A stretch of DNA of 41,775 nt from Escherichia phage C130_2, in sequence record MH363708. One strand, given 5' to 3'. The notes under the pieces were generated by a model. The model was not told the origin of the DNA. It saw only the letters and a list, made by a program, of their open reading frames with translations, and searched no databases. The stretch's first letter is position 1, and every line of letters begins with the position of its first letter. Made by a program: the position numbers and the translations under genes. This document shows, piece by piece, positions 4,013 through 40,865 of the stretch.

Positions 4013-4028
4013 GGCCCCTTCGGGGGCC
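4013..4028 (+). other. GC-clamped UUCG-tetraloop hairpin within the operon
   Basis: GGCCCCTTCGGGGGCC; no U-tract follows, so it is more likely an RNA stability or processing element or a weak attenuator than a full terminator. Confidence 0.35.
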
Positions 4029-7545: not shown

Positions 7546-8078
7546 CGTGGGCCGCTGTAGTTGCAGCGATCCAACGGTGGTGGAAGCCAGCCGCGCTGCT
7601 GTTGCTGCTGGGTGGATCCTTCGCCGCCGGCACGGCCTGGAATGATCGGGGCTGGCAAGCAAAATGGGCTGATCGGGATGCAAAAGAATCCTCCCAGGAA
7701 ACGAACGCGCAGACCGCAGCCCGCATGATTGAACAAGGGCGAACCATTGCCCGTGAAGAGGCTGTGAAAGATGCACAACAACAAGCGGCAAAAGCTGCTG
7801 CCACTGCTGCTGGCCTGTCTGCCACTGTTAGCAAGTTGCAGCAACAAGCCGGAAAACTCGCAACCCGCCTGGACGCCGCAAAGCACACCGCAGATCTTGC
7901 CGCTGCCGTCGCAAGCAAGACAACCGGCGCAAACGCCGCAATGCTCGCCAACATGCTCGGAAGCCTTGCAGAAGAAGCTAAATATTATGCTGGAAGATCT
8001 GACGAAAGCTATCGGGCCGGAATGACGTGTGAAAGGATTTACGATCAGGTGCGGGAGTCAAACAACAAGGGGCCATGA
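7542..8078 (+). CDS. i-spanin (Rz-like)
   Basis: ATGA overlap with the endolysin stop; N-terminal TM helix then Ala/Gln-rich coiled-coil periplasmic domain; last gene of the lysis cassette. Confidence 0.65.
7771..8025 (+). CDS. o-spanin (Rz1-like lipoprotein) embedded in the +1 frame of the i-spanin gene
   Basis: Lies entirely within 7542-8078 in another frame; signal peptide with lipobox LLASC, proline-rich mature part with Cys residues; the classic lambda/P21 nested arrangement. Confidence 0.6.
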
Positions 8079-8092
8079 TGGCCCCTTTTTTT
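8069..8092. terminator. Bidirectional intrinsic terminator between the lysis cassette and the convergent Ig-like gene
   Basis: GGGGCCATGATGGCCCC followed by T7 on the plus strand and a U-rich stretch on the minus strand. Confidence 0.6.
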
Positions 8093-19629: not shown

Positions 19630-19650
19630 GGCCCCTTCGGGGGCCATTTT
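19630..19650 (+). terminator. UUCG-tetraloop hairpin with short U-run (partial terminator)
   Basis: GGCCCC-TTCG-GGGGCC followed by ATTTT. Confidence 0.45.
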
Positions 19651-20704: not shown

Positions 20705-20733
20705 ATAAGGGGCCATTGCGGCCCCTTTTTTTA
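20705..20733. terminator. Bidirectional intrinsic terminator between the plus-strand block and the tailspike gene
   Basis: A-run, GGGGCCATTGCGGCCCC, T7. Confidence 0.65.
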
Positions 20734-37501: not shown

Positions 37502-37518
37502 GGGGCCATAATGGCCCC
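37502..37518. other. GC-rich hairpin GGGGCCATAATGGCCCC between the terminase and portal genes
   Basis: Perfect 6-bp stem; could terminate the antisense small-ORF transcript or act as a processing or attenuation site in the late transcript. Confidence 0.4.
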
Positions 37519-37524
37519 CTTTGC

Positions 37525-39147
37525 TTATCGGTTGGACGGCACCCGCAGGTTGCTATAGTCCGGCCTGATCTGCGGCTTCGGCGGCTGCATCGTCATGATC
37601 AGACTATCTGCCATGCCTGGTGAGCGGATCTTCAACTTCTCGCGCATTTGCTTTTTCGGCATCCTGCGGAATTTCCCGTTGTTGTCGTAGATACGGGGGA
37701 TCCTGCATAGCTCGGCGCGTAGCTGGGCCATAAATTCACCGATCCCCTCGCTGTCCAGACTGATCAACTCGTCGGGGTTGCTGTACTCCCCGTGCTCAAT
37801 CGCCCTGTATGTCTTTTCAAAGCGACGGCGTAACAGGTAGATATCCTGCGATCCCCTGTCACCAAACTGATCTTTGTTTTTGCGGGTGTTGCGCCCCTCG
37901 GCCTCCTTGTTTAGCCAGTTGTCCAACTCCACTGGCGCTTCGGGATTCTTCACGCCTTCACCGGCCTTGTATTCGTCCACCAGCACGGCAGTATCTTTGT
38001 AAGCCGTGGTGATATCGCGGCGCAGGGCTGCGCCCAGGCCGGAACCATCCCAAAGGAACATATTCACGCCGTGCGCCTTCGCCCAGGTGATCGCCTTGTC
38101 GGCTGAGTCGTTGGCGTCGCCGTCATACCAGGATTGAGCGAAGCAAACAACGCTGCCGTGCCGCTCAATGTACGCCTTGTTATCTTTCCCCACGTCTGCT
38201 GGGTCAAGTGCTGCGATGCGTGCGCCGGTAGGCTTCCAGCCCATTTTCTTATGCGCATCAATGGCGGCATCGAACCATTCAGCCGGAATGATCGCATCTT
38301 CTACGCTGTCGTTAAATGCGCCGTGCCAGATATGATCGAACAAGGCGCGGGAAAGCGTCTTCCGATCAAACTCCATTTCGGCGCGCAGGGCTTCGGGGAA
38401 CCACGGGTTTTTGTCGTAGTTCACTTTGATAACGAGGTGTAGATCATCCTCGTAGATCCCTTTGGCGTCCAGTTCATGCAGGAACGGCACAATAAAGCGC
38501 TGCGAGAATGGATCCTCGCTGCTGCCTGGGTTGGCGGTAAAGATCATGCGCCCGCCTTCCTCGCGCATGGTCGGGGTCAGCTTGCGCAGACTGTCGGCGC
38601 TGAATGTCTGCGACTCTTCACCCCAAAAGCGGGTAAAGCCAAACGCCGATTTTACGCCGTCAGGGTCACGGGCCATGCCTTTAAAGCGGTGCCCGCCGCC
38701 GTTGGCGTGCCTGATCTCGTCGCGCAGGAACTCCAGCCCCTCGATCCCCTGCTTCTCGGCGCACGCCTTTAACAGCGGGTAAACGGAATCTTTGATCGAT
38801 GATTGGAACTCACGGAGGTTGAGCACCTTTGCTGCGTAGTCGTCAACGTCAGCATTGACGATGCGGCCCACGCTTTCTGACTTGCCGGAACCACGGCCCC
38901 CGATGATAACGATAAATCGTTTTGGGCGGGTCAATACCGGCTCCATGACTTCGGGGATCGTCACGGTGTGCGGCTCGGTTGTTTCCACCCAGCGACGGCC
39001 CACGCGCTTAATATTCTTGACGTGGATCGGCATGAAGTCAGACGGGCGATAGATACCGAAAACCGTTTGGGTGTGCGTTTCGATATGGCGCGCCCTCGCC
39101 TCTGCCTGGTTCGTCCGGCGCATAATGTCTTTGAGGTTACGCCCCAT
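37525..39147 (-). CDS. Terminase large subunit
   Basis: 540 aa; Walker A IIGGRGSGKS near the N-terminus, nuclease-like C-terminal half; GAGGA RBS; immediately upstream of the portal gene. Confidence 0.85.
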   Translation of the reverse strand: MGRNLKDIMRRTNQAEARARHIETHTQTVFGIYRPSDFMPIHVKNIKRVGRRWVETTEPHTVTIPEVMEPVLTRPKRFIVIIGGRGSGKSESVGRIVNADVDDYAAKVLNLREFQSSIKDSVYPLLKACAEKQGIEGLEFLRDEIRHANGGGHRFKGMARDPDGVKSAFGFTRFWGEESQTFSADSLRKLTPTMREEGGRMIFTANPGSSEDPFSQRFIVPFLHELDAKGIYEDDLHLVIKVNYDKNPWFPEALRAEMEFDRKTLSRALFDHIWHGAFNDSVEDAIIPAEWFDAAIDAHKKMGWKPTGARIAALDPADVGKDNKAYIERHGSVVCFAQSWYDGDANDSADKAITWAKAHGVNMFLWDGSGLGAALRRDITTAYKDTAVLVDEYKAGEGVKNPEAPVELDNWLNKEAEGRNTRKNKDQFGDRGSQDIYLLRRRFEKTYRAIEHGEYSNPDELISLDSEGIGEFMAQLRAELCRIPRIYDNNGKFRRMPKKQMREKLKIRSPGMADSLIMTMQPPKPQIRPDYSNLRVPSNR

Positions 39148-39568
39148 TCCTGATCATCCTCTCAATGCCCCATAGTGTGCGCACCACGATCATTTCAATG
39201 GCGTATGCCTGGTATTCGTCATTCTCCAGATCCCATTCCTGCCCGCGTGATCGGAAAATGCTGTTAAGCGTGTGGATCGCCTCATGCGCCACCCGCCCTG
39301 CCACTATGGCTGGATCGGCGTCCATCTTCACACTGAGGACGGCAAGATCCCAATTGTCCGGGGTTTGGTATGGCTGGAAGCTGGCACCGTAAGGGCGTCC
39401 GTCTTCCAGGTCTGGCAGGATATCGCGGATCGCGTCGAAGTCTTCCAGAAGATGCACGACAAGCTGCACCCGCCAGGGGTGCAACTCATAGACGTAAAAG
39501 CCAGCCGCTTCTAACTGCTGGATCGTGTTTTTATTCCGCTTCTGTCGTGGTGTCAGTGTCCGTGCCAT
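39137..39568 (-). CDS. Hypothetical protein with HEAIH (HExxH) motif; possible small terminase by position
   Basis: ATG at 39568 with GGAGAG RBS; overlaps the large-terminase start by 11 nt; no recognisable small-terminase motif. Confidence 0.4.
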   Translation of the reverse strand: MARTLTPRQKRNKNTIQQLEAAGFYVYELHPWRVQLVVHLLEDFDAIRDILPDLEDGRPYGASFQPYQTPDNWDLAVLSVKMDADPAIVAGRVAHEAIHTLNSIFRSRGQEWDLENDEYQAYAIEMIVVRTLWGIERMIRNGA

Positions 39569-40124
39569 GCTCGATCTCTCCGCGTTTCGCTGCTTCTGCC
39601 TCTGCCTGGCGGCGTTCGATCTCGTCCAGACGTTCAAGGATCCCGCTGATTTCCTGCACCTCGGCACCCTTCTTGAAGATATCGATCAGGGCGTGCGCGG
39701 CATCAATCGGGATCTCACCCTTCGCCACTGCCACCATGATCGCATCAATGCGCTGGTTTGGTGTCCAGGTCGGATCAAAGTCAAATTCGAAGTGCGGCAT
39801 GGTTGGGCGCTGATACGGGATCAGGCGGGCCAAAATGTCACGGTACATGGAAGGATCTTTCCAGGCCAACTGCAAGCCGCGCTGAATGAAAAGCTCTTCT
39901 GTGAGCGTCACCTCTTCCATCTGGCCTTCGGCGTTCAGTTGCTTAACCTTGACCGTTTGCAGGGCTTGCAATAGCAGGGTGCGGAATTGTGGCCCGCGCT
40001 TCTGGTTGCGTGGGCTTTTCGGTGGCGGGTTATCCTCGCCAAACTTCTTGCCCTCGCCACGGCCTTTGCCTGGGCCTTGCTGTGGGCCATCGTCGATCAG
40101 GGGGTCTTTGTCGTGGTCGATCAT
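39531..40124 (-). CDS. Hypothetical protein (197 aa); alternative small-terminase candidate
   Basis: Basic Gly/Pro-rich N-terminus, acidic C-terminus; weak RBS; overlaps the downstream gene by 38 nt. Confidence 0.4.
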   Translation of the reverse strand: MIDHDKDPLIDDGPQQGPGKGRGEGKKFGEDNPPPKSPRNQKRGPQFRTLLLQALQTVKVKQLNAEGQMEEVTLTEELFIQRGLQLAWKDPSMYRDILARLIPYQRPTMPHFEFDFDPTWTPNQRIDAIMVAVAKGEIPIDAAHALIDIFKKGAEVQEISGILERLDEIERRQAEAEAAKRGEIEHGTDTDTTTEAE

Positions 40125-40166
40125 TTTCGCTTCATTCTCTCATGATTACATGGTTGAAGCGATTAT

Positions 40167-40180
40167 GGGCCAAAAGGCCC
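40167..40180 (-). other. Hairpin GGGCCAAAAGGCCC
   Basis: Perfect 5-bp stem between genes 40188-40547 and 39531-40124. Confidence 0.3.
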
Positions 40181-40187
40181 AATAAGA

Positions 40188-40547
40188 TCAATCAGAGTGG
40201 GAACTATGACCGGCGCGCGGTTGCGGGGTCAGGTCGATCCAGGCGATTTCCTCCGGCGTTATGTCCACCAGCGGCGCGCCTCGGTGGTTGAATGCGTGCG
40301 GGTCGGCCTTCTTCGACTCATACCCACGAAAGCGGCGGTTTTTGTTGTACTCCCTCGCATACAGCCTGGAACAATCAACGCACTTTCCGCTGCTGGTGAA
40401 GAATCCGGCGCTGTGCCCGTCAATCTGGCAACCCTGCTGGGGGTGGTAGATCTTCGCCTTCAATAGCCGCGCCTCTGCCCTGCTCTTCGGGTGCCGCGTA
40501 GTCAATCCCGCTGGCTTCCTGCTCTGCCAATCGTTCGTATTCCCCAT
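40188..40547 (-). CDS. Hypothetical Cys-containing protein (119 aa); conflicts with 40420-40620
   Basis: ATG at 40547 with AAGGGG upstream; Cys/His cluster (CQIDGH...CVDC). Overlaps the alternative ORF by 128 nt. Confidence 0.3.
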   Translation of the reverse strand: MGNTNDWQSRKPAGLTTRHPKSRAEARLLKAKIYHPQQGCQIDGHSAGFFTSSGKCVDCSRLYAREYNKNRRFRGYESKKADPHAFNHRGAPLVDITPEEIAWIDLTPQPRAGHSSHSD

Positions 40548-40620
40548 CAATGGTGATCCCCTTCTCAATGCGTAGGGGGCCGGACACGGCCCCGCATACT
40601 TGATAAGCGATGCCGCCCAT
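40420..40620 (-). CDS. Hypothetical acidic protein (66 aa); conflicts with 40188-40547
   Basis: ATG at 40620 forms a TGATG overlap with the upstream gene stop (translational coupling). Confidence 0.3.
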   Translation of the reverse strand: MGGIAYQVCGAVSGPLRIEKGITIDGEYERLAEQEASGIDYAAPEEQGRGAAIEGEDLPPPAGLPD

Positions 40621-40865
40621 CAGCCTAACCAATCCACGGGGCGCACGTCACACAACAACCGTGAGTTTTCAACGTTCACGCCGTCTGCCGATCCGCGCAC
40701 CTGGATAAAGATCCGATGGTACGCCTTATCGCCGTTAAGGCTGGGCTTTATGTCGTAGCCGGTTACGCGGTGCGCTACCCAGCGATCAACGCTGGAAAGG
40801 TGGATCAGCACGTCACAACCCACGGGCGGCAACTGCTCACCATCCCAAATCTGTTTCATGCCCAT
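40620..40865 (-). CDS. Hypothetical protein (81 aa)
   Basis: ATG at 40865 with AGGAG RBS. Confidence 0.5.
   Translation of the reverse strand: MGMKQIWDGEQLPPVGCDVLIHLSSVDRWVAHRVTGYDIKPSLNGDKAYHRIFIQVRGSADGVNVENSRLLCDVRPVDWLG

Follow-up and report, generated by a model that had tools for sequence, protein, structure and literature searches.

Some phage proteins are encoded in pairs by one stretch of DNA read in different frames; lambda Rz/Rz1, phiX174 D/E, and the L gene of MS2 are known out-of-frame pairs. Overlapping frames are also used in programmed frameshift cassettes, such as lambda G/GT (-1), dnaX (-1), and prfB (+1). Here, we consider an out-of-frame overlap between two small open reading frames (ORFs), A and B, in the genome of Escherichia phage C130_2 (genus Hungariovirus; MH363708); this 41,775-bp genome, in its entirety, is the window analyzed. 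An earlier note on this DNA left a choice: either only one of the two ORFs is real or they form a genuine overlapping pair. The available data favor the pair: both ORFs are probably real coding genes, independently translated from one minus-strand mRNA, with ends that overlap out of frame. Frame-specific conservation is found in both ORFs, in different segments, and the single-ORF option loses ground.

The A/B Locus and Its Annotation

The genes of this region lie on the minus strand and are directed toward the large terminase gene (37525-39147); this gene order bears out the location upstream of the terminase region proposed in the earlier note. ORF B opens with an ATG at 40620-40618 and ends with a TGA at 40422-40420 (66 codons). 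ORF A, whose frame is +1 relative to B, opens with an ATG at 40547-40545 and ends with a TGA at 40190-40188 (119 codons); as a mechanical ORF, it reaches back to a TTG at 40568. Verification of coordinates, strand, and stops confirmed that the ORFs 40188-40547 and 40420-40620 overlap by 128 nucleotides (nt) in different frames. The two initiation signals that had been noticed are also in place: the plausible ribosome-binding site (RBS), AAGGGG at 40563-40558, belongs to A, and the TGATG is part of CTGATGG at 40623-40617, in which the TGA of the upstream 81-residue (81-aa) gene (40620-40865) and the ATG of B have the A in common.

How much can be read from such an arrangement? The genome has a GC content of 55%, and its list of ORFs includes 96 that reach 100 aa or more; a 66-codon ORF in an alternative frame is unremarkable, and since ORFs of such length are common at this GC content, support beyond chance must come from comparative data. 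Both genes are present in the GenBank deposit of C130_2 as overlapping hypothetical proteins on the same strand. The sequence of B is exactly that of gp56 (HOU22_gp56); gp55 (AXC34326.1 / YP_009812602.1) is A started at TTG 40463, a 91-aa protein that overlaps B by 44 nt. In related contigs, gene callers start A at the equivalent of TTG 40463 or omit A, and some metagenome records already use the 119-aa form. Two points go beyond the earlier note: GenBank already holds both genes, with a shorter A, and the constraint on the overlap is asymmetric, not dual.

Constraint Changes Frame Within the Overlap

Which frame does selection see? The ratio of nonsynonymous to synonymous differences (pN/pS) was computed as Nei-Gojobori sums over 12 distinct sequences of the C130_2 clade. 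Where B stands alone (40620-40549), pN/pS is 0.53 in the B frame, 1.31 in the A frame, and 1.36 in the third frame; the corresponding values are 0.56, 1.31, and 2.32 in the 5′ half of the overlap (40547-40483), 1.01, 0.13, and 0.71 in its 3′ half (40482-40423), and 1.76, 0.16, and 1.47 where A stands alone (40421-40191). Counts of distinct codon variants, used as a second measure, give synonymous changes in 6/10 variants of B codons 14-46 (p = 0.013) and in 3/12 of B codons 47-66 (not significant); for A, they make up 1/6 in codons 1-21 (not significant), 8/11 in codons 22-42 (p = 4e-4), and 17 of the 24 in codons 43-119 (p = 6e-7). Codon-usage scoring of both frames, a check suggested by the earlier note, favors the B frame over 40620-40483 (log-likelihood +25.5 bits, vs -19.1 in the A frame) and then switches to the A frame; this change, near 40483, falls at the same place as that of selection.

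By these measures, constraint is asymmetric: it appears to act on the B frame from 40620 to about 40483 and on the A frame over ~40482-40191, and the last 20 codons of B and the first 21 of A look unconstrained. The unconstrained acidic tail of B lies over the conserved helix and the first zinc ligand of A; in the C130_2 clade, the unconstrained, probably disordered N-terminal extension of A lies over the middle of B. The dispensable end of each protein is thus paired with the constrained part of the other, so that selection would act on one frame at a time. The codons of the AEARLL region of A illustrate this: variants CGG CTA TTG, CGG TTG TTG, and CGA TTG TTG are synonymous in A, and the same variants are nonsynonymous in the B frame (AAI, AVV, AIV, TIV). 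In the clade of Skarpretter, in which the B homolog is referred to as B', pN/pS of the B'-only part is 0.35-0.63 in the B frame vs 0.8-2.0 in the others, and the 77-nt overlap is A-dominated from the ATG of A on (0.13-0.29). Low diversity of 40547-40483 had been entertained as a signature of dual coding and was dropped: the segment is as variable as single-coding A.

Taken frame by frame, each ORF shows selection or homology that the other frame does not appear to explain, with weaker support for B (p about 0.01; cross-genus E = 1e-5). Clear frame-specific conservation of only one ORF, which would have spoken against a pair, is not what relatives show: each ORF is conserved and has cross-genus homologs.

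ORF A Belongs to a Family That Precedes Terminase Genes

A matches the phrog_30250 profile with E = 1.2e-10 (residues 28-107 of a 126-aa form against profile positions 12-85 of 98). By tblastn, A is 94% identical to its homolog in Stutzerimonas phage STP9 and 51% identical to that in Skarpretter, and homologs from several phages of Murrayvirus and Sortsnevirus reach ~40%; a word-indexed protein search with A found one cluster, and the wider family emerged from an exhaustive profile search. Members of this family precede terminase genes in four phage genera: wherever downstream sequence exists, the A homolog is followed by an ORF of ~185-197 aa, an ORF of ~105-145 aa, and TerL (PF04466). The Lumpael record, which ends just downstream of its A homolog, is uninformative for synteny. 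A24, E25, A26, Y34, and C40 are invariant in a nine-member family alignment, and their codons (40478-40428) lie within the overlap. In Murrayvirus and Sortsnevirus, genera that lack B, A homologs stand alone with their own ATG.

Two simpler accounts of the locus can be set aside. Family homology of A rules out that only B is real and A is spurious, and the presence of the two-ORF arrangement in more than 20 independent assemblies rules out a sequencing frameshift that splits one gene.

ORF B Is Conserved Across Two Genera

B has no match in Pfam, NCBIfam, or PHROGs. Within the C130_2 clade, 15 protein clusters (83-100% identity) hold an intact B of 66-67 aa, and a B profile finds six further homologs of 54-59 aa in Skarpretter-like phages, for a total of 21 clusters in two genera. 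B and B' (BLASTP E = 1e-5) have the core RIxxGITIDGE[YF] in common. Within it, GITIDGE of the window and of Skarpretter consists of identical residues encoded with five nucleotide differences, all at third positions of B codons, and the A-frame translations are unrelated. In Skarpretter, this core lies ~30 nt upstream of the Shine-Dalgarno (SD) sequence of A and is therefore not simply the RBS of A. The B-frame translation includes peptides GITIDGEYER and LAEQEASGIDYAAPEEQGR.

The B-only part behaves as a coding sequence by other measures as well. Of the 8 nucleotides in 40569-40620 at which the window and STP9 differ, 7 are silent in B, the TCC to AGC change (Ser to Ser) among them, and indels that distinguish intact B copies in this part are multiples of 3 in both clades. 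The start of B is kept through changes of the neighborhood: CTGATG marks the exact point at which the window and STP9 become homologous; among 13 related sequences, four different upstream sequences precede the ATG of B, which is always at the upstream stop; and in STP9, L012, and L018-L020, which lack the 81-aa gene, the ATG is still at the stop of a gene. B would be a small acidic protein with a conserved part that spans roughly residues 1-28 to 1-46.

In one Skarpretter-like lineage seen in two samples (L031 and L032), most of A has been deleted, leaving a 24-codon remnant, MADLPIALMPKTKNEAILRCLPRR; B is open in both (L031 2501-2780, L032 1627-1900).

Where Does A Begin?

The most probable start of A is ATG 40547, and TTG 40505 is its main competitor; the ATG is favored by its better start signals and by a homolog from phage KMB41, which has its own start and no B, and whose N-terminus, MGWQSKEP, aligns with W7-P12 of the window. 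The SD of A is spaced 9-10 nt from ATG 40547 and has an energy in the top 5% of all positions on the strand; in relatives, the energy is -6.5 kcal/mol with a spacing of 9, and in the Skarpretter clade an invariant GAGGAG (-8.9 kcal/mol) precedes the clade's own A start at the identical spacing of 9. A start at the TTG (codon 15) would keep both genes real but make A a 105-aa protein with an 86-nt overlap, leaving codons 1-14 of the 119-aa ORF untranslated. This is unlikely, although far from negligible: it fits the lack of purifying selection and the atypical codon usage of A codons 1-21, the mere 9-16 residues that most A-family members have ahead of AEA, the N-terminus of P0025 (MERTTPKSRAEA), which matches the window from T16 on, and the conservation in most relatives of the TTG together with an AGGA 11 nt upstream. 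However, ATG 40547 is the better codon and has the stronger SD (-6.5 to -7.9 kcal/mol at spacing 9 vs -3.5 to -5.1 kcal/mol at spacing 10-11), and the KMB41 alignment extends upstream of the TTG. Furthermore, T 40546, the base needed to complete this ATG, falls at a synonymous position of a B codon (GAT) and yet is fixed in 13/13 clade sequences; Skarpretter, in which A starts elsewhere, has GAC at the equivalent site.

The GenBank arrangement, in which A is the 91-aa gp55 and the overlap is reduced to 44 nt, is almost certainly wrong. It has the deposited annotation and several gene-caller outputs on its side, as well as a GAGG 7-8 nt upstream of TTG 40463 (-5.8 kcal/mol, spacing 7), but it discards AEA (codons 24-26), invariant in the nine-member alignment, and with it the R-x-E-A consensus of the whole module; the confidently modeled helix 23-28 precedes this TTG, and A codons 24, 26, 27, and 28, also upstream, vary purely synonymously in the A frame. 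Loss of AEA and of the helix, together with synonymous variation upstream, refutes this start. Since the 91-aa truncation removes the conserved helix, the annotation of A should be extended to 119 aa or, failing that, to a start that lies upstream of codon 24. With either of the upstream starts, the overlap cannot be shorter than 59 nt, the distance between A codon 24 and the B stop; 128 or 86 nt is more probable.

Could One Gene, or One Fused Product, Explain the Locus?

Several observations weigh against two independently translated genes. Variation within the clade supports B only modestly (p about 0.01), and B codons 1-13 are hypervariable (7/19 variants synonymous, not significant). A codons 1-21 show no A-frame constraint (1/6 synonymous; pN/pS 1.3; codon usage -5.3 bits). 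At 40547-40483, 9.2% of columns are variable, against 11.4% in single-coding A; the segment is no better conserved, and sequence evolution does not demonstrate simultaneous dual constraint in it. B also contains a hairpin of a type that C130_2 otherwise has only after gene ends, so that some of the conservation at this place may reflect constraint on the nucleic acid itself. Finally, the conserved aromatic residue of the B core is replaced by Cys in L031 (GEC), and the A homolog of L033 has two 1-nt deletions; these variants could be decaying copies, in the course of pseudogenization, or assembly errors. If only A were a gene, 40548-40620 would be a leader or intergenic region that carries the hairpin and the RBS of A, and B would be open without making a functional protein. 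The hairpin family, GGGGCC-loop-GGCCCC, is otherwise intergenic in C130_2, the first 13 codons of B are hypervariable and its last 20 neutral (pN/pS 1.0), Pfam, PHROGs, and NCBIfam hold no match to B, and alternative-frame ORFs are frequent at this GC content. We nevertheless consider this account improbable: differences in GITIDGE between the genera have a period of 3 and are synonymous in B, in a segment that is not the RBS of A in Skarpretter; indels in the B-only part are multiples of 3; the ATG of B is kept exactly at the upstream stop in at least four mosaic contexts; in both clades, pN/pS is lower in the B frame than in either of the others; and codon-usage scores favor the B frame.

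A quite different account makes a fusion the functional product: a +1 (or -2) programmed frameshift at ~40500-40480, for example at GCA CCC GAA, would join B to A, and B alone would be the non-shifted product. The sharp turn of both constraint and codon usage from B phase to A phase near 40483, which also counts against two separately translated genes, is what a fusion would produce; A is in +1 relative to B in both clades, the A frame of the window is open back to the stop codon of the upstream gene, and a shift at CCC-G would, as read from the sequence, give a seamless ...AAP-KSRAEA... junction. Still, this is very unlikely. No canonical +1 site (a stop or rare codon in the A site with an SD ~3 nt upstream) is visible by eye in the overlap, and conservation of the sole candidate, CCC-G, does not extend to the Skarpretter clade, in which L034 has TCC; nor does the +1 relation fit a -1 cassette with an X XXY YYZ heptamer. 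The SD and ATG of A are conserved in both clades (-6.5 to -8.9 kcal/mol, spacing 9), A-frame constraint in the Skarpretter clade begins at the ATG itself, A stands alone in Murrayvirus and Sortsnevirus, and none of the best 150 A-family representatives has a B-like N-terminus. Nor is there a stimulatory structure: folding of the overlap RNA gives z = 0.69, and Rfam has no credible match. To our knowledge, +1 frameshifting is very rare in phages. Only slightly less doubtful is the broader idea that the conserved +1 layout is itself functional, with the conserved N-terminal peptide of B and a GC hairpin, which lie directly ahead of A in both genera, forming a regulatory unit. If true, the unit would be a +1 frameshift fusion or a translated leader with a hairpin, could set the level of the zinc-ribbon protein A, and would act just upstream of a promoter for packaging and structural genes.

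Two independently translated genes thus remain the preferred explanation. Their expression may be pictured as follows. B would start at ATG 40620, probably by termination-reinitiation coupling to the upstream gene, given the base that its ATG has in common with the upstream stop and the weakness of its own SD. The ribosome would translate the conserved part of B, then the acidic tail that lacks constraint, and terminate at the TGA at 40422-40420. A would most likely initiate at ATG 40547, with an SD that lies within the coding sequence of B, and would consist of a disordered, weakly constrained tail of ~21 residues, a conserved basic helix (AEARLLKAK), and a Cys/His zinc-ribbon-like module. 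Start signals are present for both ORFs; that both starts are used is what we infer.

A Is Predicted to Be a Small Zinc Protein

Residues 20-70 of A correspond to a widespread module with the consensus R-x-EA...Y-x-G-x-x-C-x2-4-H...RYT-x-x-G-x-C-x-x-C: the exhaustive profile search found it in 623 representative proteins (E<=0.001), often in 2-5 copies each. In an AlphaFold2 model built from a 79-sequence alignment, residues 21-75 form a short helix, a zinc knuckle, and a long helix with a predicted local distance difference test score (pLDDT) of ~95, and residues 1-20 have low confidence; a model from 15 sequences was unusable (pLDDT 49). Searches of Pfam and NCBIfam gave no match for A; searches of solved structures gave none either, and a sequence-profile search of the PDB returned chance hits only. 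The helix and Cys/His module at 40371-40490 (residues 20-59) recurs in proteins P0027-P0172 as a repeat that has no Pfam model.

Could A be a nuclease? In predicted viral structures (BFVD), GIY-YIG, endonuclease VII, and HNH proteins carry its ~50-residue zinc module as an accessory domain, and the matches of A to nuclease proteins are confined to this module. A recombination endonuclease VII domain (PF02945; phrog_1035) is not matched in Pfam, and the hit to phrog_1035 is weak (E = 0.0015). Pfam and NCBIfam also detect no HNH motif or domain: the conserved residues are C40, C56, C59, and one His, with no H-N-H pattern. None of the tests run identifies A as a nuclease. Compared with other proteins that carry the module, A has one copy followed by a family-specific C-terminal region, GY-x-x-K-x-x-D-x-x-A-x-x-H, and no detected nuclease domain. 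A is probably a small nucleic-acid-binding zinc protein.

Hairpins, a Promoter, and Neighboring Genes

Coordinates of the features are collected in Table 1.

Table 1. Features of the A/B region (window coordinates unless another record is named).
Feature	Position	Strand	Description
ORF B	40420..40620	-	66 aa; acidic, pI 4.1, net charge ~-9.5; GenBank HOU22_gp56
ORF A	40188..40547	-	119 aa; basic, pI 9.6; zinc-ribbon-like core C40, H45, C56, C59; phrog_30250
A/B out-of-frame overlap	40420..40547	-	A codons 1-43 and B codons 25-66
Conserved core of B, codons 14-28	40537..40581	-	GPLRIE[KQ]GITIDGEY; 5/6 codon variants in the clade synonymous in B
Start of the conserved A helix, codons 24-29 (AEARLL), over the B tail	40461..40478	-	A24/E25/A26 invariant in nine-member alignment
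Predicted zinc-binding module of A, C40-C59	40371..40430	-	C40, C56, C59 invariant in 79-sequence alignment
SD-like AAGGGG for A	40558..40563	-	in B codons 20-21; -7.9 kcal/mol with anti-SD
Alternative A start, TTG at codon 15	40503..40505	-	86-nt overlap; SD -5.1 kcal/mol, spacing 11
TTG start of GenBank gp55 (91 aa), refuted	40461..40463	-	AEA and the A-frame synonymous pattern lie upstream
GC hairpin GGGGCC(G)-loop-(C)GGCCCC	40576..40593		in B codons 10-15; stem essentially invariant, one base differs in STP9
Upstream 81-aa gene, phrog_26831	40620..40865	-	TGA 40622-40620 shares one base with the ATG of B
Sigma-70-like promoter	40162..40191	-	TTGATC, 18-nt spacer, CATAAT; between A and the next gene; -35 overlaps the A stop
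Murrayvirus/Sortsnevirus ~160-190-aa protein at the position of B	L003 1941-2504; L004 971-1474; L005 974-1480; L006 1001-1471		

Among relatives, the hairpin within B has a hypervariable loop and is closed at its inner end by G-C, A-T, or G-T, or by an A-C mismatch. At the corresponding place, B' of Skarpretter-like phages has a GC hairpin that differs from this one and whose pairing is preserved across a 3-nt indel. Five hairpins of the same family are intergenic and near gene ends, at 4013-4028, 8069-8085, 19630-19645, 20709-20725, and 37502-37518. Folding of 40420-40625 reveals no unusual structure, and the Rfam search of the overlap gave one chance hit far below threshold; RNA-based explanations for the overlap were rejected on these grounds.

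The 63-nt spacer between A and the next gene has only two variable columns among 13 sequences. The promoter, whose -35 element reaches into the A stop, probably serves the packaging and structural genes. Skarpretter-like phages have TTGATT and GATAAT, with a closely similar downstream leader that contains AACCATGTAATCATGAG. In this region (40125-40191, minus strand), the 18-nt spacer of the promoter also holds a hairpin, TGGGCC-TTTT-GGCCCA, at 40166-40181.

On the upstream side, the 81-aa phrog_26831 gene (minus strand) represents a mosaic insertion or deletion whose junction is exactly at the ATG of B; this gene, or an 80-81-aa counterpart, is called at this position in L010, L011, L013-L017, and L022. 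In Murrayvirus and Sortsnevirus, the position of B is occupied by an unrelated protein of ~160-190 aa, ATGA-coupled to the A homolog, with an N-terminal CxxC...CxxC and a Ser/Asp-rich tail that ends in GGCD. Downstream of A, there is a second out-of-frame overlap on the minus strand (39531-39568): 38 nt are common to the 197-aa gene 39531-40124 (phrog_9747) and the start of the 143-aa gene 39137-39568, which in turn overlaps TerL by 11 nt. Annotations of Skarpretter (26 nt) and of KMB41 and ST231 (23 nt) include overlaps comparable to that at 39531-39568.

The A/B Pair Among Known Overlapping Genes

The A/B overlap is an ordinary, if rather long, gene overlap of a known kind and implies no new mechanism. 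What is new is modest: a longer and better-supported A, an asymmetric constraint on the overlap, and conservation of the arrangement, in the same relative frame, across two genera whose nucleotide similarity is about 38% (PMC7552041). The practical value lies in annotation, as the public gp55 and many calls in related contigs truncate A at an internal TTG or omit it. The locus is also a clear small example of how a long out-of-frame overlap is tolerated when a dispensable end lies over a constrained part.

How does this pair compare with those described? Like lambda Rz/Rz1, phiX174 D/E, and MS2 L, it encodes two proteins in different frames of one DNA stretch, with one frame dominating selection at each position and with a downstream gene that begins inside the upstream one in the +1 frame. 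Unlike in these pairs, the overlap is partial, joining neighbors end to end rather than embedding one gene fully in another, and nothing here points to a lysis function or to dependence of A on translation of B. With frameshift cassettes, A/B shares a short upstream ORF that runs over a longer downstream one and a change of constraint phase in the overlap; unlike the cassettes, it has a +1 relation without a recognized shift site, and A has its own conserved SD and ATG and stands alone in related genera.

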